Positions 1 to 60,678 of a stretch of DNA of 64,000 nt are shown in pieces (positions within the stretch are counted from its first letter, which is position 1; each line of letters begins with the position of its first letter). The DNA comes from an uncultured bacterium (GTDB taxonomy: Bacteria > Patescibacteriota > Minisyncoccia > Phycocordibacterales > CAIRYW01): the NCBI GenBank assembly GCA_963766885.1, contig CAVYBO010000002.1, forward strand, positions 365,521 through 429,520, given 5' to 3'. The notes under the pieces were generated by a model that was given only the letters and a program-made list of their open reading frames with translations, was not told where the DNA came from and ran no database searches. Both the position numbers and the translations under genes were made by a program.

Positions 1-923
<923 letters not shown>

Positions 924-927
924 AGAT

Positions 928-1860
928 CTATTTTAGCATTTTCAAAATTTCTTTGGCATCAGCAATCATAGACAAAGCTGTCGGTTCTGGACCTGCTCCA
1001 GGACCAGAAACACTATACAAACTTTCACCTTCTTTTATATAAAGCACATTATTTACTCCTTCTGGAAAATCCAGAACAAAATTTTTAATATTAAAAATTC
1101 CTGCATATATAAACCAGTCCTTAATTTGATATTTTAATCCATCTATAAAATCACCATTCTCAACTTTAGCCATTAAAAACAAAAATCTATACTCTTTTGG
1201 ATTTGAAATGGCTTTTTCGATTATTTGATGTGATATCTCTTTTGGATTTTCAAATTTTATCCAAAGATTAGCGGTATTTGCAATAATGATTGCTTTTCTA
1301 TATAAATCAGAAAGTTCGGTATTTATAATCTCAGTAAACGTTTTTGCATCTGGTTCAGAATATTTATTTTCTAAAATATCTTTTATTACAAGTTCTTTTG
1401 TGGCTCCTTCTGATAATCTTGAAAAGATATAATTAAGCGTGCCGTTTACAACTCCTGTGACACTTGAAATATTTTCTTTATTTCTGCTGTTTAGATACTT
1501 AAGCATCCTAGTGCCTCCGCCAACTGTTGCATTATAGCCGATACTTTTAAGATTAGACTGGAGTTTCTCAAAATATTCTGAAAGAGCACCTTTTTCACAT
1601 GTCACAACTGGAATATTTTTCTCTACACAATATCTAATATACTCAAAAGAAATATCAGCTAAAGATGTTGGAACAGCAATAAAAACAATATCAGCGGCAA
1701 TATATTTTTTCCATTCTGAAATGGAATTTACTCTTTTGCCTTCTCTATCCAAAATATCTTTACTGGTGAGTACAAAATCCACAGACCAGCCAATTCTCTT
1801 TATCTGCTTTTGAAGCTCTTTGCCTATTGAACCATTTCCAATAACTATTGTTTTTATCAC
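928..1860 (-). CDS. homoserine dehydrogenase-like NAD(P)-binding dehydrogenase
   Basis: The N-terminus has the Rossmann motif VIGNGSIG, and the C-terminus has a GPGAGPEPTA motif typical of homoserine dehydrogenase. Confidence 0.55.
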   Translation of the reverse strand: MIKTIVIGNGSIGKELQKQIKRIGWSVDFVLTSKDILDREGKRVNSISEWKKYIAADIVFIAVPTSLADISFEYIRYCVEKNIPVVTCEKGALSEYFEKLQSNLKSIGYNATVGGGTRMLKYLNSRNKENISSVTGVVNGTLNYIFSRLSEGATKELVIKDILENKYSEPDAKTFTEIINTELSDLYRKAIIIANTANLWIKFENPKEISHQIIEKAISNPKEYRFLFLMAKVENGDFIDGLKYQIKDWFIYAGIFNIKNFVLDFPEGVNNVLYIKEGESLYSVSGPGAGPEPTALSMIADAKEILKMLK

Positions 1861-1899
1861 AAAAAAATTATAACAAAGAGTATTTTAATACCTCAGGCA

Positions 1900-2925
1900 T
1901 TATTCAGCGGCAGGAGTTTCCTTTTTTTCTTCAGGCTGCTTTTTTTGGCTATGAGTATGTCCGTCCACTTCGTAGTTCGTGTTTTGAGCTTCAAAAAAGT
2001 TAACTAGCTCAAATACATCTGTTGCTGTGGACATCCATTTGGCCGGGTTGGTTGCATTGTAATATTTTTGGAGCCCCAATTCTTCAAGTCGTCTATCTGC
2101 CACATATTGAACGTATTGATTAACATAATCGGCATTTAATCCGAGAATCCCATTTGGAAAAAGATCTTTATTATATGCTGTTTCCTTGTCTACGCCTTCA
2201 ATGATTAAGTCTCTAATCTCATTTGCAAATTCTTCTGTCAAAAGCTCGCTATTTTCTTCAAGAATATTGTGAACAAGGTTGATTCCAAACTTTAGGTGAA
2301 GCGATTCATCGCGAAGCACCCAGTTGATCATTGAGCCAAAATTCCGAAGCTGGTTTCGCTGACGGAAAGAAAGCGCCACCATAAATCCTGAATAAAACCA
2401 GGTTCCTTCCATGACAATGTTTACTGCAACTAAGTTTCGGATGAATTCTTTTTTGCCTTCAGTGCTTTCAATATCAAGTTTGGTGCTTGTCATCTTTTTG
2501 AAATGCCTCATTATGTACTCTTCCTTTGCCTGCATTGAAGGAGTTTCAAGATGGATTTTGTAGACAGAGTCCCTGTCAAAAGGAAAAGTCTCCAAAACAT
2601 ACTCGAAAGCCACGCAATGATTGGCTTCTTCCCACATCTGCTTGGCAAGATAAAGATGGCATTCCGGAGATTTCAGATATGGATAAACTCCCAAGGCAAG
2701 CACGCGGTTTACAATAAGCTCTGCGGGATTAAAAAAAGCCATAACAAACTTTACAGCGTGTTTTTCATCTTCAGTCATCTTGGTCCAGTCTTCTAAGTCT
2801 TCTTTTAGAGCAATTTCGTGTGGAAACCAGGTGTTTCGAACAGCCTGGTTATACAAATCATAAGCCCACTGATAGCGGATTGGATGCAAATTTACGTCCT
2901 CTGGTTCGGCTTTTCCTAAAAGCAT
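1900..2925 (-). CDS. nrdB: ribonucleotide reductase class I beta subunit
   Basis: It has the R2 ferritin-like di-iron ligand region (EEANHCVAFEY, VNIVMEGTWFYSGF) and is immediately downstream of nrdA. Confidence 0.9.
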   Translation of the reverse strand: MLLGKAEPEDVNLHPIRYQWAYDLYNQAVRNTWFPHEIALKEDLEDWTKMTEDEKHAVKFVMAFFNPAELIVNRVLALGVYPYLKSPECHLYLAKQMWEEANHCVAFEYVLETFPFDRDSVYKIHLETPSMQAKEEYIMRHFKKMTSTKLDIESTEGKKEFIRNLVAVNIVMEGTWFYSGFMVALSFRQRNQLRNFGSMINWVLRDESLHLKFGINLVHNILEENSELLTEEFANEIRDLIIEGVDKETAYNKDLFPNGILGLNADYVNQYVQYVADRRLEELGLQKYYNATNPAKWMSTATDVFELVNFFEAQNTNYEVDGHTHSQKKQPEEKKETPAAE

Positions 2926-2963
2926 ATTTTCTAAAACTATTTAATTTGTAATGAATTGTTATT

Positions 2964-5624
2964 CTACTGGCAAGAATCGCATTGGGCAAGTTCTGCGGGA
3001 TCTGTTGGACAAGTCTTTGAATCGGTCATAATAACATTTGGTCTTGAAGGCATTGCGGCCTGCACTGGCACTGCAACTTTTTCTTTCTGTTTCTCTTTTG
3101 GATTTTCTTTCTCTGGTTTTATTTGAGCCTCTAAAGATTCCGAAGAAATTTTAGCCTTAGATTCTTTTTCTGGTTCTATGTCAAGACTCTTTTGAAGCGG
3201 CATATTGAAAGACTGCGGCGCTATATCGCTTTTGAATCTGACCGCTGCAAATCCCACTCGGCCCATTTGCTTTGACTTATTGACAGCAACAGTAGACTGC
3301 TCGGCGGTGTGTCTTGGTTTCATGTGCAGATAATACGTAGACTTGAGTCCTTTCTCCCAAGCTGTTGAATAAATACTCATCGCCTCATCAATATCCCTGC
3401 TTTGAAGGTACATATTTCTGGAAATCGCCTGATCCATCCATTTTTGAGCGCGCGCGGCAACTTCAATGAACGCATAAGGAGAAGTGGTAAAAGAAGTTTT
3501 GTAAATATTTTTTATGTGGTCTGGAATTCCTTCTATGGCCGAAATATCACCTTGATTTTCAATAATCAAATCTCTTGTCTCTTCCCAAATTCCCATGTTC
3601 TTTAAGTCTCGCACAAGATTATGATTGATATCAAGATATTTTCCTGAAATTTTATTTCTAGAAAAAGCTTGGGTAAATCTAGGATCAATTCCCGGAGTTG
3701 TTCCTGCCACAAGTCCTATATTTGCATTCGGCGCAATTGCCATAAGAGTTGCATTTCGGATGCCTCTTTTCACTTTCGCTCGAAGCACATCCCAGTTGAG
3801 CCCTTTATGCTTGCTTTCTCGAGAAACCGTTATTTTTTCATCTCTATCTTTTTCTAATTTGGCGATTGAATCAAAAGGTACCAAGCCTTTGGACCATTCC
3901 GAGCCTTTAAAATTATTATAAGCACCTCGATCTTGCGCCAGGTTTGCGCTCTCATCAATTGCCATGTAGCTTATGAATTCAAAAATCCTGTCTGCAAAGT
4001 CATAAGCGTATTCGCTATCATACGCCAAGCCGAGCCTCTCTATAGAATCAGCAAAGCCCATCACTCCAAGCCCTACCGCTCGATTTTGTTTGTCAGAGCG
4101 GTCCGCTTCGGGAATCGGAGATTTATTGATATCAATCAGGTTATCTAGCTGATGAACTGCCAAACGCACGCTTTCTTCCAGTTTGCCCCAGTTTATCTCT
4201 TTGTCCTTTATATGTGCTGGCAGGTTGATAGAAGTAAGGTTGCAAACCGCTACATTGTCTTTATCTTGTGGAAGGCAGATTTCAGTACAAAGATTAGACA
4301 TGTGAATAGTCCCAGTATTGTTATTTAGAGCCCTTAAATTGATGGTGTCCTTCCATACAATCCAAGGATGGGATGTTGTTTGAAGTGCAACCAGTATTTG
4401 CCTATATTGCTCTTGGGCTGGCACTTTTTTGAAAGTGCGCATTTTGCCCGCATCAGCAAGTTCTGCATACTCTTTGTATCTTTTGCTAAAAGCTGCGCCA
4501 TAAAGTTCGTTTAGGTCAGGAACATCTGCCGGATCAAACATGTACCAGGAATCGCCGCTTTTCACTCTCTTCATAAACTCATCAGAAACATAAGCGGCAG
4601 TATTTGCAGTTCTCATTCTAAGATAATCGTCTCCAGCATTGTGCTTCCAGTCAATGAATTCTGGAAAATCCAAGTGCCAGTTTTCCATATAGAAACAAAG
4701 CGCGCCCTTTTTCTTTCCACCTCTTTGAATTGCGCGAATTGCGGTATCAATAACTTTTGCAAAAGTTGTCGGTCCGGTTGAAACTCCGCCGAAGTTTGAT
4801 TTGAGCGGTGAACCTGATGCGCGAAGTTTTGTGATTGATGCGCCAAGTCCGCCAGAACCTTTTGACAAAAGCATCACATCAGAAACTGATTTGGCGATAT
4901 GCTCCATATTGTCGTGAATCTCCAAAAGAAAACAATTTGAAAGCGCCGGACGCGTTGTGCCTGCGCCAAGATTTGTTGATCCTGCCGCAATATATTCAAG
5001 CTTGGACATTTTGTTGTAAAACTTGATTGCCCACAAAGTCGGATCTTTTTCGTGGTAAGCAAGTCCCATCGCAACTCTCATAAAAAGAAATTGTGGAGTT
5101 TCAATTGTGCCTTGCTTCATATCCCGAATTGAATATCTGTTCATCAATCCATCAAGACCAGAATAAATAAACAGTTCGTCGCGCTCGGGCTTCAGCGCGT
5201 CTGCAATCTTTTCCAGATTATATTTATCGGCCATATCAGGATGAAGCCTTTTGTCCTTTATGCCGTCCTTTATATAAGAAAGAAAAGCCGCGCGGTGCTT
5301 TTGTTTGAAATCATCAAAGTCATCTTTGTCATATTCGCCGATAACCTTTCTATATACTGTTTTTAATAAGAGTCGTGTAGCAACTTTATCGTATTCTATG
5401 TCCTCTTTGATGTTTTGGATTGCGGTATTGATAGTCGCTTTGTCCAATTCGTCAGTAGTAATGCCATCATACAGAGTCAGTTGTGTTTCGGTAGCAATTT
5501 GAGTAACCATTGAGATTGGATCGAGCATCCCCTGGCACGCGCGTTCTATTGATCGGTTGATTTTATCTGCGTTGAAAGGCACTTTTGTGCCGTCGTGCTT
5601 GGTGATTGAGATTCCATTACTCAT
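2964..5624 (-). CDS. nrdA: ribonucleotide reductase class I alpha subunit, with ATP cone
   Basis: It has an N-terminal ATP cone (ITKHDGTKVPFNADKINRSIERAC), the active-site motif SNLCTEI and C-terminal redox cysteines (CPTDPAELAQCDSC). A K/E/P-rich linker of about 60 aa precedes the C-terminal cysteines. Confidence 0.9.
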   Translation of the reverse strand: MSNGISITKHDGTKVPFNADKINRSIERACQGMLDPISMVTQIATETQLTLYDGITTDELDKATINTAIQNIKEDIEYDKVATRLLLKTVYRKVIGEYDKDDFDDFKQKHRAAFLSYIKDGIKDKRLHPDMADKYNLEKIADALKPERDELFIYSGLDGLMNRYSIRDMKQGTIETPQFLFMRVAMGLAYHEKDPTLWAIKFYNKMSKLEYIAAGSTNLGAGTTRPALSNCFLLEIHDNMEHIAKSVSDVMLLSKGSGGLGASITKLRASGSPLKSNFGGVSTGPTTFAKVIDTAIRAIQRGGKKKGALCFYMENWHLDFPEFIDWKHNAGDDYLRMRTANTAAYVSDEFMKRVKSGDSWYMFDPADVPDLNELYGAAFSKRYKEYAELADAGKMRTFKKVPAQEQYRQILVALQTTSHPWIVWKDTINLRALNNNTGTIHMSNLCTEICLPQDKDNVAVCNLTSINLPAHIKDKEINWGKLEESVRLAVHQLDNLIDINKSPIPEADRSDKQNRAVGLGVMGFADSIERLGLAYDSEYAYDFADRIFEFISYMAIDESANLAQDRGAYNNFKGSEWSKGLVPFDSIAKLEKDRDEKITVSRESKHKGLNWDVLRAKVKRGIRNATLMAIAPNANIGLVAGTTPGIDPRFTQAFSRNKISGKYLDINHNLVRDLKNMGIWEETRDLIIENQGDISAIEGIPDHIKNIYKTSFTTSPYAFIEVAARAQKWMDQAISRNMYLQSRDIDEAMSIYSTAWEKGLKSTYYLHMKPRHTAEQSTVAVNKSKQMGRVGFAAVRFKSDIAPQSFNMPLQKSLDIEPEKESKAKISSESLEAQIKPEKENPKEKQKEKVAVPVQAAMPSRPNVIMTDSKTCPTDPAELAQCDSCQ

Positions 5625-8967: not shown

Positions 8968-9882
8968 TTAAGAACTAACACCACCTCCAGTGATTGTGAA
9001 ATTAACCGAATTGCTGGTTGTGCCGTTGCTTGTTACAGAAACCTGATAGACACCAGAAGCAGAATTACCAACAAAAATATTTGAGAGAGTGAAGATAAGT
9101 TGGTTGCTATCAACTATTGGTTGACCAACGAGCCATCCTACTACTTTGCCATTTTGACTAAAGTTCACGGTACTGTTTGTGCTAAAGCCACTACCATAAA
9201 TTGTTACCTTTGTACCAGAAGTCCCAGAAGTTGTTGACAGGGAGGATATAGATGGTTGAGTTGAAACTGAATTACCTACAACTTTTAATGAATAAGAAGC
9301 ACTCGTACCTAAACTGTTTGTAATATAGAGATTATAATTTCCAGCAAGTAGGGCTGGGCTATCTGGTACAGCAAGATTTAAAGATGTTCCATTTGCACTT
9401 GCCCACTCTAGATAAGATGTATTTCCCGAGCTAGAAACAAGATACACGTTAACTATATTGCTTAAGTTTTGTCCATACACATTATCAGTAGATGTTGCAC
9501 CGAATGTATTTGATAGGGATGTAATAACTGGTATAGAAGAGGACGTAGTTTGTGTTGAGCCAGAACCCAATACCCCATCTGCATTACAATGAGGAGGATT
9601 GGTTGCACCGTTATAACAAGCCGCTGGAGTTGAACCCTGCTGTGCAAGTAAAGTTTGCAACTCTGCTTCAAGCTGTTGGAGAAGTTGTGTAATGAGCTGA
9701 ATAATTTGCTGTTTTGTAGAAGCCGCAGTAGAAGCACTTACACTTTGTGCAAACACAGGAGAGAAAACTGCTAAAGACAGAAGTCCGACACCCAAGAAAG
9801 AAATATATTTTTTCATATTTGATAATAATTTAGTAATGTAGTAATTATACACTACTGCCCTACAAAACATATCTCGGTTCAA
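8968..9882 (-). CDS. secreted Ser/Thr-rich surface protein
   Basis: It has a signal peptide (MKKYISFLGVGLLSLAVFSPVFA), a Q/L-rich helical segment and an S/T/N-rich low-complexity region. Its 5' ~190 nt are nearly identical to those of 13306-14865. Confidence 0.6.
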   Translation of the reverse strand: MNRDMFCRAVVYNYYITKLLSNMKKYISFLGVGLLSLAVFSPVFAQSVSASTAASTKQQIIQLITQLLQQLEAELQTLLAQQGSTPAACYNGATNPPHCNADGVLGSGSTQTTSSSIPVITSLSNTFGATSTDNVYGQNLSNIVNVYLVSSSGNTSYLEWASANGTSLNLAVPDSPALLAGNYNLYITNSLGTSASYSLKVVGNSVSTQPSISSLSTTSGTSGTKVTIYGSGFSTNSTVNFSQNGKVVGWLVGQPIVDSNQLIFTLSNIFVGNSASGVYQVSVTSNGTTSNSVNFTITGGGVSS

Positions 9883-10037: not shown

Positions 10038-10664
10038 ATGAAAACTTTTGCTTTTATTGATGCATCAAACTTATTTTATGGAGGAGAGAAAAGTCTCGGC
10101 TGGAAAATTGATTACAAGAAACTTTTGGAATACTTGAAAGAAAAATATAGTGCAGAGAAAGTTTTTTACTTCGGTGGCGTTGAGATACACGACTTTCCAT
10201 ACGACTACCAGACAGAAGATACGGTGCCGATAGAAAAGCTGGACAAGCATCTTGCAGATTTGCTGAAAAACAAAGGAGAAGAACTTGATGAAGCAACTAT
10301 CTTGCTCATTGGCAGACATCTGAAGAGGGTGCAGTTTTACAGAAAGCTCCAAGAGTTCGGTTATACCCTATTTCTTAAACCAGTAAAGCTATACGACCAA
10401 GATGATGGAACCACAAAAAGAAAAGCTAACTGCGATGTTGATATGGCTTTCCACTTGATGAAAGAAAAACATAATTTTACCAGAGCCGTTGTTCTATCGG
10501 GAGATGGAGACTTTCTGCCAGTGCTGAAACACCTCAAGGAAGTTGGCAAAGATGTCTTGATATTAGGCAGAGGTCCAAGAACAGCAAAAGAAATAAAACA
10601 ATTTGCAGGAGATAAGTTTTTAGACTTCACTCGTCTTCAGCACAAGCTATTTTTTAATAAATAA
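10038..10664 (+). CDS. NYN-domain (LabA-like) protein, putative RNase
   Basis: It has an AFIDASNL N-terminus and a conserved acidic core (VVLSGDGDF), typical of NYN/PIN-like domains. Confidence 0.65.
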   Translation: MKTFAFIDASNLFYGGEKSLGWKIDYKKLLEYLKEKYSAEKVFYFGGVEIHDFPYDYQTEDTVPIEKLDKHLADLLKNKGEELDEATILLIGRHLKRVQFYRKLQEFGYTLFLKPVKLYDQDDGTTKRKANCDVDMAFHLMKEKHNFTRAVVLSGDGDFLPVLKHLKEVGKDVLILGRGPRTAKEIKQFAGDKFLDFTRLQHKLFFNK

Positions 10665-10743
10665 AACAGACGGCACCTGCGAAAGATGCCAGTCCACGTT
10701 TAGTGCATTTAGTATATACGATATTTGGCGTATGTAAAGTGCA

Positions 10744-11432
10744 TTAAAACTCCTGGACCATAGGTATATCGCTTACAAAATTCTCAACCTTTTTGGTTAC
10801 CGTTTTTGTATTACCATGCTTTAAAAGCCCAATGTAATATTGCACCGTCTCGGGCTTCCCTGCTTTGTTTTTGATATTTCTAAACATTCTTTTTTTGGTG
10901 ACTGTTCTAATAATCCTGTTGTCCGGAAAATGCACCCACCCCAGAAAATCAATACCACTTCTGGATGAACATCTAACGACTCGTCAATTTTAATGCCGAT
11001 TTGTTTTGCCATTTCTTTAGTAAATTTTTTACCAATCTCGCTATGAAAATAGCCGAGCGTACGACAAATATCAATTCTTTCTGTTTCCGAAAGAGATTCC
11101 CATACGTCCATCATCATATCGCCCTCAATATATTCATACCCATACATTTTTGGTTTTTCGGAAACAAAAATTACACGAGGTATAGGAACAGAAAGACCTA
11201 TTTTATACAGTTGTTGAATAACGACAGCTTCTATCGCCAAATCATTTTGTTCTTGCAACTCTTTGTCGTTTCCTTGTTCTTTGACAATATACTTACTCTT
11301 GTCAGAAGTTTCTATATAATAAGCATTGTTACAATAGCCTTTGCCTTTTAATACAAACTTTGTAATTGCTTTACGTAAAAGTTCTTGAATTTTAACTTTG
11401 AGTTCATCTTCAGTGGCTGAATTATTTTCCAT
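10744..11432 (-). pseudogene. aminoglycoside/choline-kinase-like phosphotransferase, frameshifted
   Basis: It has a kinase N-lobe (KGKGYCNNAYYIETSDKSKYIVKE) and a Brenner-like DVHPEVVLI motif. The reading frame breaks near 10935-10960 and continues as IDFLGWVHFPDN in another frame (ORFs 10821-11432 and 10744-10935). Confidence 0.4.
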
Positions 11433-11444
11433 ACTAAAAATAGT

Positions 11445-11570
11445 ATCAGGTTAGAACTGAAAAGTCTAAGGGAAATAAGGATTTATTGAAGAAATCTACT
11501 GATGGGCGACGTAGTAGAGGATGTTAGAACTGTTTTTGAGAGGTTGAATGATATGAGTATTTATATTCCT
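11445..11570. repeat. ~125-nt repeat, copy 1, abutting the start codon of the phosphotransferase pseudogene
   Basis: It shares two identical blocks with 13113-13245: tatcaggttagaactga (17 nt) and tgatgggcgacgtagtagaggatgttagaactgtttttgagagg (44 nt). Confidence 0.85.
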
Positions 11571-12112
11571 AACTTGTCAGCCATCAAAATATCGTAACCA
11601 ACCATAACCCTGTCTTCCTTTTTGATTCCAAATTTTTCTAGAAACGAGAAGAGTTCATTGAAGACAACTTCATCATCTTCATCAGACATTTTTTCCACTT
11701 CTATGAAATCTCCCAATCCTTCTACTTCATCAATACAGATTTCATAATTATTAAAATTTGCTTTTCTTCTTTTCTTGTTTAGCTCCATAGCTTTTTTATA
11801 ACCCATAAGTTCAATCATTTCAGAGGTAATTTTTGCATCACTAACCACAACTTCTTTTTCCAATTTTGATAGATTATTTTTCATTGAACCTTGTGGCTTT
11901 TTTACGGTAAAAAGAACTTTATCTTTCGTAACTCTAATCCTTGCAAACACAGCTCCATCTGGATAATCGGCATATTTTTCAGAATAGTTTATGAAGACAG
12001 AATCATTTTGTATGACTTCAATACCAAAAGGAATCCCCTCTTTTTCAAAGGTTTTAATGAGATTTTCCTTATCTTGAATTTTTGCTTTTACCTCTATTTC
12101 TTTTATTGGCAT
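11561..12112 (-). CDS. CYTH-domain protein (class IV adenylate cyclase / triphosphate tunnel metalloenzyme family)
   Basis: It has the N-terminal EIEVKAKI signature (ExExK), downstream R/K residues, and the expected ~180-aa size. Confidence 0.65.
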   Translation of the reverse strand: MPIKEIEVKAKIQDKENLIKTFEKEGIPFGIEVIQNDSVFINYSEKYADYPDGAVFARIRVTKDKVLFTVKKPQGSMKNNLSKLEKEVVVSDAKITSEMIELMGYKKAMELNKKRRKANFNNYEICIDEVEGLGDFIEVEKMSDEDDEVVFNELFSFLEKFGIKKEDRVMVGYDILMADKLGI

Positions 12113-12121
12113 AATAAATTT

Positions 12122-12667
12122 TTATTTTTTAATATCAACTAAAATAAATTTAACAACTTCTTCTGAAGAAAATTCTGTGGTATCAAATACTTTTCCTAGG
12201 TCATACCTGTTTTCTTTCCAAGTTTTCAGGTTATTTTCAATTCTTTCTTTTGTTAGGGGTATTTTTCCTGGAGTGTCTGGCCTGACGTGTGCCCTTTCCC
12301 TTAATACTTCTATTGGGGCTTCTAACTGATAGAAATGTAAATCTGTTCTAAATTCATTAGCTAGGTTTATATATGGCTCAACATATTCTTTTTTCCAGAA
12401 TCCCTGTTCTATTAGTACATTGCAACCCTGTTCAAGAAATGTTTTTGCCATTGAAAGCATTACTTTACTTATAAGACCATTATCTTCATTATTTCTCTCA
12501 AAATCAGAAAGAAACCATTTGATTTTATCCATACTGAGTAAAGCTGTTCTCGGAAGTTTTGGATGAAGTATAGAAGCGATTGTAGTTTTACCAGCACCCA
12601 TTGGTCCTTCTAGAATTATTACAAATTGCTTTTTCATATTAGCGGTTTTATATTTTCTCTTATCCAA
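12122..12667 (-). CDS. P-loop kinase (AAA_33 / zeta-toxin / chloramphenicol-phosphotransferase-like)
   Basis: It has a Walker A motif (GPMGAGKTT), is about 180 aa, and has a small lid region. Confidence 0.6.
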   Translation of the reverse strand: MDKRKYKTANMKKQFVIILEGPMGAGKTTIASILHPKLPRTALLSMDKIKWFLSDFERNNEDNGLISKVMLSMAKTFLEQGCNVLIEQGFWKKEYVEPYINLANEFRTDLHFYQLEAPIEVLRERAHVRPDTPGKIPLTKERIENNLKTWKENRYDLGKVFDTTEFSSEEVVKFILVDIKK

Positions 12668-13104
12668 GCACCTTTCTTTTCCTTGTATTCTTCGCGACTC
12701 AAGCCAGAAAGACCTCTTTTAAATTCTTCGTATCTTTTTCTTAATTCTTCATTTCCACGAAGCACTTCAATAATTCCCCTATGCTTATCTATATTATTAT
12801 TTTCTGGAGACATTATTTGAACGGCTACCTCAACATTTTCTACCATTATTTTTAAGAAAGAAGTTTCATCCACTACAGGACCTTGTCTGTATCCGTGTTG
12901 CACAAGAATTTGAGAATCTTCTTCAATATGTTCACTTATGACCATTATGTCTAGTTCAGGTCTACCAGTCATAGGTACAGCCATAGCTCCAACAGCTTCA
13001 ACGTGTGAATCTGGAAGTAGAGCTTTTATTTCTTCTAATTTTTCTTGCTGTATGCGAAAAATTTCTTCAGATGGTTCTACTATCGTTTCAATTCTATTTT
13101 TCAT
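12634..13104 (-). CDS. GrpB (UPF0157) family nucleotidyltransferase-fold protein
   Basis: VEAVGAMAVPMTGRPELDIMV matches the GrpB core (HIGSTAVPGLAAKPIIDI). Confidence 0.6.
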   Translation of the reverse strand: MKNRIETIVEPSEEIFRIQQEKLEEIKALLPDSHVEAVGAMAVPMTGRPELDIMVISEHIEEDSQILVQHGYRQGPVVDETSFLKIMVENVEVAVQIMSPENNNIDKHRGIIEVLRGNEELRKRYEEFKRGLSGLSREEYKEKKGAWIRENIKPLI

Positions 13105-13112
13105 ACCAAAAG

Positions 13113-13245
13113 TATATCAGGTTAGAACTGATTTTACAGCCTAAATAAAGGGTATTATTTATGAAATTCTTTGATGGGCGACGTAGTAGAGGATGTTAGA
13201 ACTGTTTTTGAGAGGAGGAATGATGCGACAATCTATATTCCGACA
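13113..13245. repeat. ~125-nt repeat, copy 2, abutting the start codon of the GrpB gene
   Basis: See copy 1. The two copies are direct repeats flanking the CYTH / kinase / GrpB trio. Confidence 0.85.
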
Positions 13246-13305
13246 TTTTACCCTATACCTGAACTCACTAAATATTAGATATTAGAACCAATTTAAATAA
13301 TTAGA

Positions 13306-14865
13306 CTAACAGGAATACTTACATTGAGTAGGTGTTAAAACTGAAAGATAAAGCAAATTATTAATTGATACCCCATCATTACTTACTCCAACGCTTACAT
13401 TTCCGTAGCCATAGGAAGCCCCTAGATTAGAAACAGTAAAAGTTAAAGTGGTGCCATTACTAGACACTGATGTCGGTGTAATTTTTTGTCCAGTAAGACC
13501 ATTGATATATATCGCTGTTGAACCATTAAACCCAGAGCCGGTTATTGTAATGTTTGTTGACCCATTGAATGGAACCGTCGTTGTTGATAATGAATATATT
13601 GGAGGATTTGTTGAACTTTGATTTTGTCCTGGGTTGCTAATAGTAAAGTAATTATCACTGTAATCAAAAGGTCCTTCAGCCATCATACTTTGTGGAGGAT
13701 AACCCTCTATTAAAAATTTAAACTGATTTTGATTATCAACGTTTTTTAATGTATATGGACCTCCTGAATAGTTTTGAATATAAGCACTTAGCGATACATT
13801 TGGAATATTCCAGGTGTAGCTTCCAGTATTGTTTGTAGTCACACTTTGGTCAGGTATTACTGCTTGATCCTCATTACCAGCAACTAAGGTAATTCTGACT
13901 TGTGAATAAGCGGAGTTAAAAGCTGGAGATGCATTCCAAGTTATATTGTAAGTATTTCCTTTAATTAAGTTCTCGCCTCCATTAGGTGAAGTAATTGTAA
14001 TAGATGGGGTTTGATTTTGTGTTGAACCAGAAACTGTAAAAGGATACTGATTACTCTTTAATCCATAAATATTTTCAACCTCAACATTGTATTGTCCTGG
14101 GAGTGTGCTGTTTGGAACTGAAAATGAAAACTGGGTATCGCTTGTGGGTTCCCCAGAAGGATTATTTGTTGAAACGTCTGTAATAACAGCACCAGTAGAA
14201 GCATTTAACAAATGTATTTCAATTCCACCATTAACAGAAAATCCTGTTCCATAAACCGTTATAGAACTTCCCATACCAAACTTTGTGCTGTCAACATAGG
14301 CAGTATTTGGAGAGATTGAAGTTATCGTAGGTGCTACTGATGTAGGTGTTCCAGAAATTATTGAGAAAATGCCGCTTTGAGCGCCTACCTCTCCACCTGG
14401 ACTCAATGCTCCGCAATTTCCAACAGCAACAGAATAAGAACCACTTGGTATACTTGAATCAACTATCCAAGAATAATTACCACTGTTAGAAATAGCGTTT
14501 GCTATTGTTTTAACTGAAGTATTATTTGAAAGTAGATTGATTGAGATATTTGGACAAAGTAAATTAGAAGATGTCCATGTAATGTTGTATGTCTGGCCTG
14601 CTGTTAATTGACTTCCTGCAGTTGGACTAATAACAGTAATGGAAGGTTGGGTTGAAGTTGTTGTGGTTGTCGTCTGAGTTGAACCTTGCTGTCCCAACAA
14701 AGTCTGCAACTCCGCTTCAAGTTGTTGGAGAAGTTGAGTTATAAGCTGAATAATTTCTTGTTTAGTAGAAGCTGCAGTAGAAGCACTTACACTTTGAGCA
14801 AATACTGGAGAGATGACAACAAGAGAAAGCAAACCGACACCGAGAAGAGAAATATATTTTTTCAT
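13306..14865 (-). CDS. secreted Ser/Thr-rich surface protein, paralog of 8968-9882
   Basis: It has the same signal peptide and QQLEAELQTLL module. It has a long S/T/N-rich C-terminal region ending in CKYSC. Confidence 0.6.
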   Translation of the reverse strand: MKKYISLLGVGLLSLVVISPVFAQSVSASTAASTKQEIIQLITQLLQQLEAELQTLLGQQGSTQTTTTTTSTQPSITVISPTAGSQLTAGQTYNITWTSSNLLCPNISINLLSNNTSVKTIANAISNSGNYSWIVDSSIPSGSYSVAVGNCGALSPGGEVGAQSGIFSIISGTPTSVAPTITSISPNTAYVDSTKFGMGSSITVYGTGFSVNGGIEIHLLNASTGAVITDVSTNNPSGEPTSDTQFSFSVPNSTLPGQYNVEVENIYGLKSNQYPFTVSGSTQNQTPSITITSPNGGENLIKGNTYNITWNASPAFNSAYSQVRITLVAGNEDQAVIPDQSVTTNNTGSYTWNIPNVSLSAYIQNYSGGPYTLKNVDNQNQFKFLIEGYPPQSMMAEGPFDYSDNYFTISNPGQNQSSTNPPIYSLSTTTVPFNGSTNITITGSGFNGSTAIYINGLTGQKITPTSVSSNGTTLTFTVSNLGASYGYGNVSVGVSNDGVSINNLLYLSVLTPTQCKYSC

Positions 14866-14945
14866 TTATTTAATTTAATACCCGACTGATAATAGGTGTA
14901 TTATACCCCCCCGTTGTTATAAACAATAACAACAAAAACCGATGC

Positions 14946-14961
14946 GCGAGTGGCGGGAATC
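14946..14961. repeat. 16-nt duplicate of the tRNA-Asp 3' end (att-like scar)
   Basis: tgcgcgagtggcggga is identical to 15117-15132. Confidence 0.8.
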
Positions 14962-15118
14962 TTTCCCTCGACTAAAATTTTCTCGTCAGAAAATTTTGTC
15001 TGGGCACCGACTCGCGGTTTTGGCTACTGCCCAAACATCGCTCCGCCGTTCAAGTACCTAAAAAAGCTCCGCTTTTTTCACTCGTGCAAACCAAAAGCCC
15101 CTTTCGGGGCTTTGTCTG

Positions 15119-15192
15119 CGCGAGTGGCGGGACTTGAACCCGTAACCTCTGCCGTGACAGGGCAGCGCTCTAACCAGTTGAGCTACACCCGC
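15119..15192 (-). tRNA. tRNA-Asp (GTC)
   Basis: It folds as a cloverleaf with a 7-bp acceptor stem, anticodon loop CTGTCAC and T-loop TTCAAGT. Confidence 0.9.
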
Positions 15193-42155: not shown

Positions 42156-42245
42156 GGAGAGATGGATGAGTGGTTTAAATCAGCAGTTTACTAAACTGCC
42201 GAGCCTTAACAGGCTCCGAGGGTTCGAATCCCTCTCTCTCCGCCA
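42156..42245 (+). tRNA. class II Ser-like tRNA with an unusual anticodon loop (TTACTAA, nominal anticodon ACT); CCA is encoded
   Basis: It has acceptor GGAGAGA/TCTCTCC, D-loop GAGTGGTTTAA, anticodon stem GCAGT/ACTGC, a long variable arm, T-loop TTCGAAT and discriminator G followed by CCA. Confidence 0.65.
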
Positions 42246-53619: not shown

Positions 53620-53692
53620 TGCGTGTGGAGGGGCTCGAACCCCCGACCGGACGAGTATAAGTCGTCTGCTCTACCAACTGAGCTACACACGC
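53620..53692 (-). tRNA. tRNA-Ile (TAT)
   Basis: It has a perfect acceptor GCGTGTG/CACACGC, anticodon loop CTTATAC and T-loop TTCGAGC. Confidence 0.8.
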
Positions 53693-56207: not shown

Positions 56208-56245
56208 CCCCCGAAAATTTTGAAAGCTTTCAAAATTTTCGGGGG
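56208..56245 (+). terminator. perfect 19-bp-arm palindrome between smpB and ssrA
   Basis: cccccgaaaattttgaaagctttcaaaattttcggggg. Its 3' arm overlaps the tmRNA 5' end. Confidence 0.6.
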
Positions 56246-56636
56246 ATGCTTGGCATAGACATTTGAAATTTCTTTGCTGTGCGCAATAGAGAATTCTCGA
56301 AATCTCTTAAACTCTCGAGAAAACTCAAGTGCTAAAGCACAGAAAGTCGCTTCTCCATATTTTGGAGCAAACGATTTCGCATTCGCTTTTGCTAGAGCGT
56401 AAGCTCGCAAACCGGATGCCATCCTTCCAGTTCCCTTCTCTCGAATTGGACAGGGTGTTATAAGATGAGAATAAGCTTGCGGATTTCTTCGCCCGCAAGA
56501 CAAAAATCTTAGAAGATCGAAAATAATGCGTTTCGTTTTGCTTTGAGCATTATTTTTTAAATTTCAAGCAAAAACACATTGCGTAGAGTCATCAAAGAAA
56601 CTCATTTGCACGCGGGTTCGATTCCCGCCATCTCCA
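56242..56636 (+). ncRNA. ssrA: tmRNA (ssrA)
   Basis: The 5' GGGGATG pairs with the 3' CATCTCC. The 3' end is tRNA-like (T-arm GCGGGTTCGATTCCCGC). A candidate tag ORF reads GCA AAC GAT TTC GCA TTC GCT TTT GCT AGA GCG TAA (ANDFAFAFARA*). It lies directly downstream of smpB. Confidence 0.7.
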
Positions 56637-57334
56637 CACTACAGGAATATTTCTCCTCAAATTTAGTTTATACATTGGTAACAAATAGTTTCGAGAGGTT
56701 CTAACCGTCACTTTTAAGCCATAATCGAAAACTATACAGTTTATAGACCAATTCTAATTGGAGCTTATTCTGTCTGCTTTAAAGAGGTTCTAACCAAAAC
56801 AAAGTCATAATCAAATATATTGTGTATAACGGCACTTGACTAACTTATACAAAAAGTATAAGCTTAGTAGGTACTTTGAAAAATCAAGGCAACTGGATAG
56901 TCATTAAAGACGGTTATTTCAGGCAGAATAAAAACTGCCTCAACTTTCCTCTATAGGTACTAGTAGGAAAAGAAAATTCACCGGCACATCTGTGCATTAA
57001 TGTCTCTATTTACAAGGCTCATATATTTTTGGTCATAAGCTCAATTGATTCATGGCGTGTCAATGTCGTGTCATCTTTGCGAGTCAGGAATTTTTTTTGG
57101 TCAGAATTGGATGGGATAATTATAGAGATAGTTATATGGTAGGGGTTACTCAACGATCGAATGGTCAGTGAGTTTCACAACAAAACGCTACCACCGAAAC
57201 AAATGACCATTCAATCTGCGAGTCACCAATTAATAGAAAGAATTAATTCCCAAATAAACAAAATATGAAAAATTATTGGTATTCGTCACACAACAGTATT
57301 GCTTTGAGCGTTTTGTATGTAAGGGAGGCAAATT

Positions 57335-60428: not shown

Positions 60429-60678
60429 GTTAGTAGGATTAGTATACCAAAACCAATATTGTTTTATAGCTTTGCTCCTTTGTTTTTAGCGTATATACTT
60501 ATTTCACAACCAAATATTCCGAAGACCTAACCCTTGAAAACCTCAAGGCACGGTCACAAATCGACGTGAATAAAAAACCTATCATTAGGGCGTTCACGTC
60601 GTTATACAGGGAAACTTGTATAGGAGCTTCGGCTCCCCTAGTGGTAGGCTTTTTGTTTCTCCACTAGGACACACGATT

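Follow-up and report, generated by a model that had tools for sequence, protein, structure and literature searches.

Tandem genomic islands are known from Dehalococcoides, where they lie downstream of the small RNA gene ssrA (McMurdie et al. 2011; PMC3146451). Each ssrA island is bounded by a direct repeat of the 3′ end of the gene, with more conserved sequence around it (~85 bp), and the large serine recombinase DsiB, of the CcrB family, is encoded at the island edge beside the repeat (PMC3146451). Some of the islands lack an integrase and have been read as cis-mobilizable elements acquired by accretion (PMC3146451). They are the closest described case to the locus studied here, a pair of direct repeats in a 64,000-nucleotide (nt) stretch of DNA from an uncultured bacterium of the Patescibacteriota (contig CAVYBO010000002.1, positions 365,521 to 429,520), hereafter called the window. 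The two repeats are probably copies of a ~150-nt junction element that separates gene cassettes in Patescibacteria, in arrays formed by tandem accretion. As in the ssrA islands, a recombinase gene can be found beside the repeat and there are integrase-less members. The Patescibacteria arrays differ in their apparent target, which is tRNA-His with only ~7 nt copied, and in their repeat, which is a 78-nt codon-constrained unit joined to a promoter-bearing arm. In addition, their units are mostly single genes of 0.5–1.5 kb as against 10–30 kb for the ssrA islands, a recombinase is present in fewer than 10% of the units, and the host genome is only ~0.6 Mb. We did not find the junction element described in the literature searched on integrons, serine recombinases and genomic islands in Patescibacteria, which by itself does not prove that no description exists.

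Two other systems invite comparison. The first is the gene-cassette arrays of integrons, above all chromosomal ones whose attC repeats are near-identical, such as the VCRs of Vibrio. The Patescibacteria arrays share with them small, mostly single-gene cassettes in one orientation, an extremely diverse and largely uncharacterised cargo, a conserved repeat of ~100 nt between cassettes and cargo genes whose stop codons often fall inside the repeat. Unlike integrons, they have neither IntI nor an attC hairpin, their repeat is codon-constrained, their cassettes bring a leaderless promoter and so do not depend on Pc, and the array is anchored at a tRNA gene. The second is SSV1 of Archaea, which has its attP within the integrase gene, so that int is split when the element integrates into a tRNA gene. 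The SSV1 integrase is a tyrosine recombinase, and 44 bp of the tRNA are copied in the shared att. Like that of SSV1, the attachment site in Patescibacteria may lie in the coding region of a recombinase, leaving a start-less C-terminal fragment beside a tRNA-like sequence. Unlike in SSV1, the recombinase is of the serine type and the in-frame link is seen at only three of five junctions.

The repeats in the window are two direct copies of ~145 nt, at 11433-11579 (copy A) and 13105-13251 (copy B), 1672 nt apart from start to start. Their parts are as follows.

13174-13251, plus strand: core of the junction element, copy B, which holds the 44-nt block described below (nhmmer with the 78-nt core profile, E 3.7e-21)
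13174-13278, plus strand: mini-open reading frame of core copy B from start to stop, MGDVVEDVRTVFERRNDATIYIPTFYPIPELTKY
13105-13173, minus strand: left arm of copy B, with an extended -10 element (TG at 13118-13119, TATACT at 13111-13116) 6 nt before the GrpB ATG
13120-13130 (plus-strand coordinates): box GGTTAGAACTG in arm B, as read from the sequence
11502-11579, plus strand: core of the junction element, copy A (nhmmer E 5.6e-18)
11502-11597, plus strand: mini-open reading frame of core copy A, its 3′ end diverged where it overlaps the CYTH gene
11433-11501, minus strand: left arm of copy A, with the extended -10 element TACTAT at 11440-11445 after TG, 7 nt before the APH ATG
11449-11459 (plus-strand coordinates): box GGTTAGAACTG in arm A

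A block of 44 nt is identical between the copies (11500-11543 and 13172-13215), and a second perfect block of 17–19 nt, TCAGTTCTAACCTGATA, lies beside each ATG. When the minus-strand sequences upstream of the GrpB and APH-like ATGs are aligned, the ~40-nt spacer between the two blocks is only ~55% identical; on the far side of the repeats, moderate similarity continues for ~30 nt more. The window has two occurrences of a 33-mer taken from the 44-nt block, and 100 shuffles have none. The decamer CAGTTCTAAC is found in the window four times against an expected 0.09, each time within a repeat; the two in each repeat lie 73 and 74 nt apart and are direct, not inverted. Each repeat ends in a -10 hexamer followed after 6–7 nt by an ATG, that of the GrpB gene (13104) or that of the APH-like open reading frame (ORF) (11432). 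Alignment and shuffling thus bear out two statements of the initial annotation of this DNA, that two direct repeats share a 17-nt and a 44-nt identical block around a diverged middle and that each abuts the start codon of a minus-strand gene. Since the perfect blocks stand in a diverged background, they point to constraint and not to a recent duplication. The annotation had also proposed that the repeats could be the ends of an inserted module. This is essentially right; more specifically, they probably represent a junction element that stands between the cassettes of arrays in many genomes. The ends of a miniature inverted-repeat transposable element or insertion sequence were considered and rejected, as the copies are direct and no inverted repeat relates the two ends.

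Look-up of GrpB and APH homologues gave the first relatives of the repeat, two partial copies downstream of an APH gene and an MFS gene in one contig (L071) and the promoter-proximal block upstream of an APH homologue in another (L073). The window and L071 agree in a 22-nt pattern, and an exact scan of a metagenome collection with this probe matched 95 contigs from Patescibacteria. The aligned contigs have in common a unit of ~78 nt with abrupt edges, outside which their sequences differ. By their match to the profile of this unit, both window copies belong to the junction-element family. The variation within the unit follows a strict period of three on the plus strand of the window, opposite to the cargo genes: among 75 distinct copies, column entropy is 0.24, 0.24 and 1.91 bits at the positions of a proline codon and 0.90, 0.10 and 1.54 bits at those of an isoleucine codon. 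The ratio pN/pS (Nei-Gojobori) is 0.42 in this frame and 0.67–1.14 in the other five. Coding on the cargo strand, in the frame with common third positions, was rejected, with a pN/pS of 0.67 and a stop in 68 of 77 copies. The constrained frame encodes the peptide x-G-[AD]-[VI]-V-E-D-V-R-T-V-F-E-[RK]-x-[NG]-D-[AT]-[TS]-I-Y-I-P-x-F with a short variable tail. It is open for 25–36 codons in most of 100 distinct copies, longer in seven, and stopped within five codons in five. Because the constraint has a period of three and no RNA pairing is found (see below), the 44-nt block is best taken as part of a codon-constrained, start-less coding module and not as a structured RNA.

An exhaustive HMMER search of a library of 1.84 billion proteins found the core peptide in 89 predicted proteins, nearly all of 29–184 amino acids (aa), with the peptide at the C-terminus. 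In one predicted protein from the representative library, P0111 (184 aa), ~150 upstream residues that by eye resemble a phage terminase nuclease domain are fused in frame to the core peptide, so that here too an unrelated ORF reads into the element. P0122 (842 aa) is an unrelated repeat protein and was discarded. A protein homology search with a recombinase tail joined to the core peptide returned three short proteins only. The peptide matches no family in Pfam or PHROGs, and a scan of viral contigs with a 20-nt piece of the block gave no matches.

The same observations could be read in another way, in which the core is the gene of an independently expressed protein of ~33 aa (a regulator, an antitoxin or a recombination directionality factor), paired divergently or convergently with each accessory gene, while the arrays arise by homologous recombination between its copies. 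Such a gene would explain the codon-level constraint and the open frame of most copies, both window copies start with ATG, and the 89 short proteins carry the peptide nearly always at their C-terminus. The copies themselves argue against it. In the 100 distinct copies, the codon at the edge is a canonical start (ATG, GTG or TTG) in only 44, CTG in 21, TGG in 15 and a non-start codon in others, and a -10-like hexamer at the right distance for the core frame is present in only 19. In addition, the peptide has no Pfam or PHROGs family, and its frame is continuous with upstream recombinase genes in two contigs (L108 and L109). We therefore regard a separate small-protein gene as unlikely.

By nucleotide profile, two to five core copies are present in 22 of 97 loci, in a single orientation in all 22. 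Neighbouring cores are spaced by a median of 933 nt, with 33 of the 39 spacings in the range 0.5–1.5 kb. An interval between cores usually holds one gene, mostly antiparallel to the core frame, and the stop codon of the cargo gene often lies within the core, like that of the CYTH gene in the window. The cargo is highly diverse, the 128 core-adjacent ORFs falling into 117 BLAST clusters and 88 Pfam families. Leading families are AAA_33 kinases (the commonest, with 5 of the 128 ORFs), methyltransferases, pilin-like proteins, Zeta toxin, Fic, NYN, NUDIX and APH; GNAT proteins and many unknowns are also found. The side of the core that faces the start of the next gene, the arm, falls into a few classes. 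In the class of the window, found in ~17 copies, the box AGAACTGAAAA lies ~50 nt from the edge and is followed by the -10 element and the ATG of the next gene, while in other classes the box is inverted or absent. Arm B aligns in register with the arms of L134, L086 and L091, and arm A with those of L134, L102 and L151. One array, in L102 (~830-5400, cores forward), has four successive cassettes with paralogous genes of 310–318 aa in the core orientation, unlike most arrays, which suggests cassette duplication inside the array.

A link to tRNA-His is seen at the ends of the arrays. ARAGORN places a tRNA-His gene beyond the array end in eight contigs, oriented as the cargo genes. The last 7 nt of this tRNA gene are identical to the core edge in three contigs and differ by one mismatch in five; the heptamers are GTCGCCC, GCCGCCC and GCCACCC, and the G/A variant co-varies within contigs. 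The 100 nt that follow tRNA-His match the flanks of the element in register in six of the eight contigs, for example at 96% over 54 nt between L140 and L114, at 98.6% over 74 nt between L089 and its own copy, and at 97% over 98 nt between L153 and its own copy. The flanks match at equal distances from the junction, which makes the tRNA-His 3′ end and the core edge interchangeable partners of the same flanks. Such interchangeability is a signature of recombination at that point.

Outside the heptamer and a T-loop-like GTTCGAA/GTTCTAA, core and tRNA are not significantly similar, and we do not claim the core as a tRNA pseudogene. The reverse complement of tRNA-His (for example L124, 3260-3331) reads …KPGFYH and a stop in the core frame, and many cores end in …IPxFY(H/P)…. 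Taken with patches such as GGTAGAA and GTTCGAA, these endings hint that the whole element of ~105 nt may be a much-diverged copy of tRNA-His, a view that has no statistical support. In L124, L080, L089 and L153, tRNA-His is followed by a terminator hairpin and then by an inverted copy of the tRNA 3′ end that is interrupted by a hairpin (GGGCGGCTA…CCGGAATCGAAC). This unit of terminator and inverted tRNA end flanks real tRNA-His genes and many element copies alike.

Contigs also differ in the presence or absence of cassettes. A 2.39-kb segment of three genes is present in L123 and absent from L136, and its junctions overlap by GGGC exactly at the core edge. L140 and L160 have the core and its right side in common and differ in their arms, with the break at the edge, as is the case for L133 and L134. 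A gene for a large serine recombinase, oriented like the core, comes to its end at the core edge in five contigs (L171, L108, L109, L082 and L073). The gene in L171 is full length and encodes 502 aa, with the active-site region YIRVSTKRQ and a match to the phrog_95 integrase (E 1.7e-74). Recombinase and Zn_ribbon_recom domains are found in L108 and Zn_ribbon_recom in L109, and only 3′ remnants are left in L082 and L073. The recombinase frame runs into the core in L108 and L109, and does so in L073 but for one stop. In L098 and L142, a core is followed after 9–9.6 kb by a serine recombinase gene that runs off the contig end, as would be expected if core and recombinase mark opposite ends of an integrated element.

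In the reading that we prefer, the junction element has two parts. The first is the 78-nt core, whose edge (…GTCGCCCA on the cargo strand) would copy the last nucleotides of tRNA-His and whose opposite strand holds an open, codon-constrained frame of ~30 codons, mostly without its own start codon. The second is an arm of ~70 nt in which a conserved box (GGTTAGAACTGAAAAG) is accompanied by an extended -10 promoter that would fire the leaderless mRNA of the gene in the next cassette. New units would enter the arrays by site-specific insertion, either where tRNA-His ends or at a core edge, and the inserting enzyme may be the large serine recombinase that abuts the edge in some contigs. As in tandem accretion, most cassettes would then be passengers without an integrase. 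The codon constraint would arise if the core is the 3′-terminal coding piece of a recombinase gene that spans the attachment site. By analogy with split integrases of the SSV1 type, this is our preferred guess for the origin of the frame. The recombination mechanism as a whole is inferred.

Several observations weigh against parts of this reading. One further pair of contigs breaks within the core, after GAACTGTGTTTGA, and another breaks at its far edge, so that homologous recombination between cores could explain the shuffling; the five events do not cleanly separate site-specific from homologous recombination. The recombinase is out of frame with the core in L171, the only full-length case, and in L082, and three in-frame junctions of five are no better than chance. 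A recombinase adjoins fewer than 10% of the cores, and among the 89 HMMER matches no protein of recombinase length carries the core peptide. Neither a circular nor an empty-site form of a cassette was observed. Serine integrases normally need sites of ~50 bp with a 2-bp crossover, and not an element of 150 nt. Aligned globally, the core and tRNA-His score no higher than shuffled sequences do. In the 64-kb window, neither tRNA-His nor a recombinase gene was found, and the array lies 1.9 kb downstream of tRNA-Asp instead of at tRNA-His.

More tentatively, Patescibacteria may possess an integron-like route of gene capture, in which a large serine recombinase would insert self-expressing, mostly single-gene cassettes at the 3′ end of tRNA-His and at cassette ends that mimic the tRNA. 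The last ~30 codons of the recombinase gene would also serve as the attachment arm, so that integration and excision would switch the C-terminus of the enzyme and possibly its directionality. Bacteria of the candidate phyla radiation have tiny genomes and their routes of gene exchange are little known, and abundant cassette arrays would be a main route of accessory-gene flux in this large share of bacterial diversity. The 78-nt core also lends itself as a simple probe with which such cassettes can be collected from metagenomes. Should the link to the recombinase hold, the arrays would be an independent serine-recombinase counterpart of the integron, and would offer natural att sites with their integrases.

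Of 60 long ORFs in the window, 27 have a -10-like hexamer 5–11 nt ahead of the ATG, compared with 9.6% of random positions, while a Shine-Dalgarno-like motif is found in 3 of the 60, which is the random rate. The genome thus appears to lack Shine-Dalgarno sites, and the hexamers suggest that leaderless mRNAs are widespread in it. The GrpB promoter is TGATATACT (TGnTATACT), followed after 6 nt by the ATG, and the APH promoter is TGATACTAT (TGnTACTAT), followed after 7 nt. GrpB homologues in other contigs have the identical -10 design without the repeat. Most likely, the GrpB and APH mRNAs are leaderless, and the repeat would lie within and upstream of the promoter.

This arrangement raises the question of whether the repeats are a duplicated promoter/operator, in which the GrpB operon and APH would be under the common control of a transcription factor bound to the two GTTAGAACTG boxes, whose spacing of 73–74 bp is seven helical turns. 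At both promoters, box 2 directly adjoins the extended -10 and is perfectly conserved beside the diverged spacer, and in ~17 of 97 other copies the box stands equally far from the edge. Such regulation is compatible with the junction element, since the arm carries a promoter. As an explanation of the repeats it is quite unlikely, as it leaves unaccounted for the period-3 conservation of the 44-nt block, the recurrence of that block after unrelated genes in 97 contigs, the oriented arrays and the equivalence with tRNA-His; moreover, the box is inverted or absent in the other arm classes and no regulator gene is linked to it. A scan of genome contigs with the two-box pattern CAGTTCTAAC-N55-75-CAGTTCTAAC gave 63 matches in unrelated taxa (for example, in Flavobacterium coding regions and tandem repeats), none of them related to the element.

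A classical integron, whose attC sites are recombined by an IntI tyrosine recombinase, would account for the oriented, mostly single-gene arrays and their very diverse cargo. In addition, the box GTTAGAA/TTCTAAC fits six of seven positions of the integron core sites GTTRRRY/RYYYAAC. A scan of all ~100 loci and the window for tyrosine-recombinase motifs gave only one ORF, which is Xer-like, and no integrase family is among the Pfam families listed for the cargo. The repeats have no detectable hairpin or dyad symmetry and the boxes in the window are direct and not inverted, while the cassettes have their own promoters and the arrays start at a tRNA gene and not at attI. An integron is therefore very improbable and in effect excluded, because there is no IntI and no attC structure.

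The initial annotation had also suggested that the 44-nt block could be a shared leader or riboswitch. A structured 5′ leader controlling both transcription units would suit the perfectly conserved block and the position of each copy immediately upstream of a start codon, but it is scarcely credible: the -10 box lies 6–7 nt from the ATG in a genome whose mRNAs look leaderless, so that the repeat is upstream of the likely transcription start; folding of the repeats on both strands gave minimum free energy z-scores of -0.49 to +1.52, no better than shuffles; RNAalifold predicted 0 base pairs from 50 diverse homologues on the cargo strand; a scan of 10500-14000 against Rfam 15 with E up to 10 returned only chance snoRNA and miRNA matches; and the conservation tracks the codons of the opposite strand. 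The structure prediction proposed there as a check on the 44-nt block thus finds no structure, either in single folds or in the homologue consensus.

Between and beside the two copies in the window lie four genes.

12634-13104, minus strand: GrpB-family gene, first of the operon (PF04229, E 1.4e-13), with homologues in Patescibacteria
12122-12637, minus strand: P-loop kinase gene (AAA_33, E 4e-13; weak matches to CPT and Zeta toxin)
11561-12112, minus strand: CYTH-domain gene (PF01928, E 5e-16)
10821-11432, minus strand: truncated APH-family pseudogene, cargo of the next cassette, which has no Pfam match by itself

The start of the kinase gene overlaps the stop of the GrpB gene (ATGA), and the last six codons and stop of the CYTH gene (GGAATATAA) fall within core copy A. 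The ORF at 10821-11432 aligns to residues 1 to ~150 of PF01636 proteins of ~300 aa at 54–71% identity; as this is only the first half of an APH protein, it is a truncated pseudogene. Pfam thus agrees with the CYTH, zeta/AAA_33-like kinase and GrpB identities first given to the trio, and the phosphotransferase pseudogene proposed at the same time is indeed truncated relative to PF01636 proteins. The repeats had been said to bracket the trio. Copies do stand on both sides, but the bracketing is not symmetrical: with the four genes all encoded on the minus strand, copy B precedes the GrpB-kinase-CYTH operon, and copy A follows the operon and precedes APH. From core edge to core edge (13174 to 11503), the window cassette would consist of arm B, GrpB, the kinase, CYTH and core A, and the next cassette of arm A and the truncated APH gene.

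The further proposal that the trio is a signalling or modification island is not supported. GrpB homologues with 69–77% identity occur without the kinase and CYTH genes and without the repeats, no conserved trio is seen in the contexts of GrpB or APH homologues, and in other contigs the genes beside the element are extremely diverse. Applied to the window, the junction element has a more modest consequence: the trio is best read as the cargo of one cassette and not as a demonstrated signalling pathway.

The array in the window sits between two paralogous genes for secreted surface proteins with Ig-like/TIG repeats (8968-9882 and 13306-14865, minus strand). Their N-terminal ~57 aa are almost identical, and the two genes flank the NYN gene, the APH pseudogene and the cassette region; they are possible substrates for rearrangement. 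The NYN-domain gene (10038-10664, plus strand) is convergent with the truncated APH gene. NYN is also cargo adjacent to the element in other contigs, and the gene may belong to the same accessory region as the cassettes.

The last 15 nt of tRNA-Asp (15118-15192, minus strand), CCCGCCACTCGCGCA, have a second copy ~160 nt downstream (15131-15117 and 14957-14943). The stretch between the two copies of the tRNA end (region 14943-15192) has a terminator hairpin and, in inverted orientation, a pseudo-tRNA 3′ piece into which a hairpin is inserted. The repeat of the tRNA-Asp 3′ end looks like the att scar of another integrative element.

Elsewhere in the window, a LOOT RNA (Rfam RF03000, 72 bits) lies at 60524-60636 on the plus strand, and a tmRNA whose tag ends in …FAFARA at 56242-56639 on the plus strand. 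ARAGORN also predicts a tRNA-Ser with the anticodon ACT (42156-42245) and a tRNA-Ile with the anticodon TAT (53620-53692), both unusual for bacteria.

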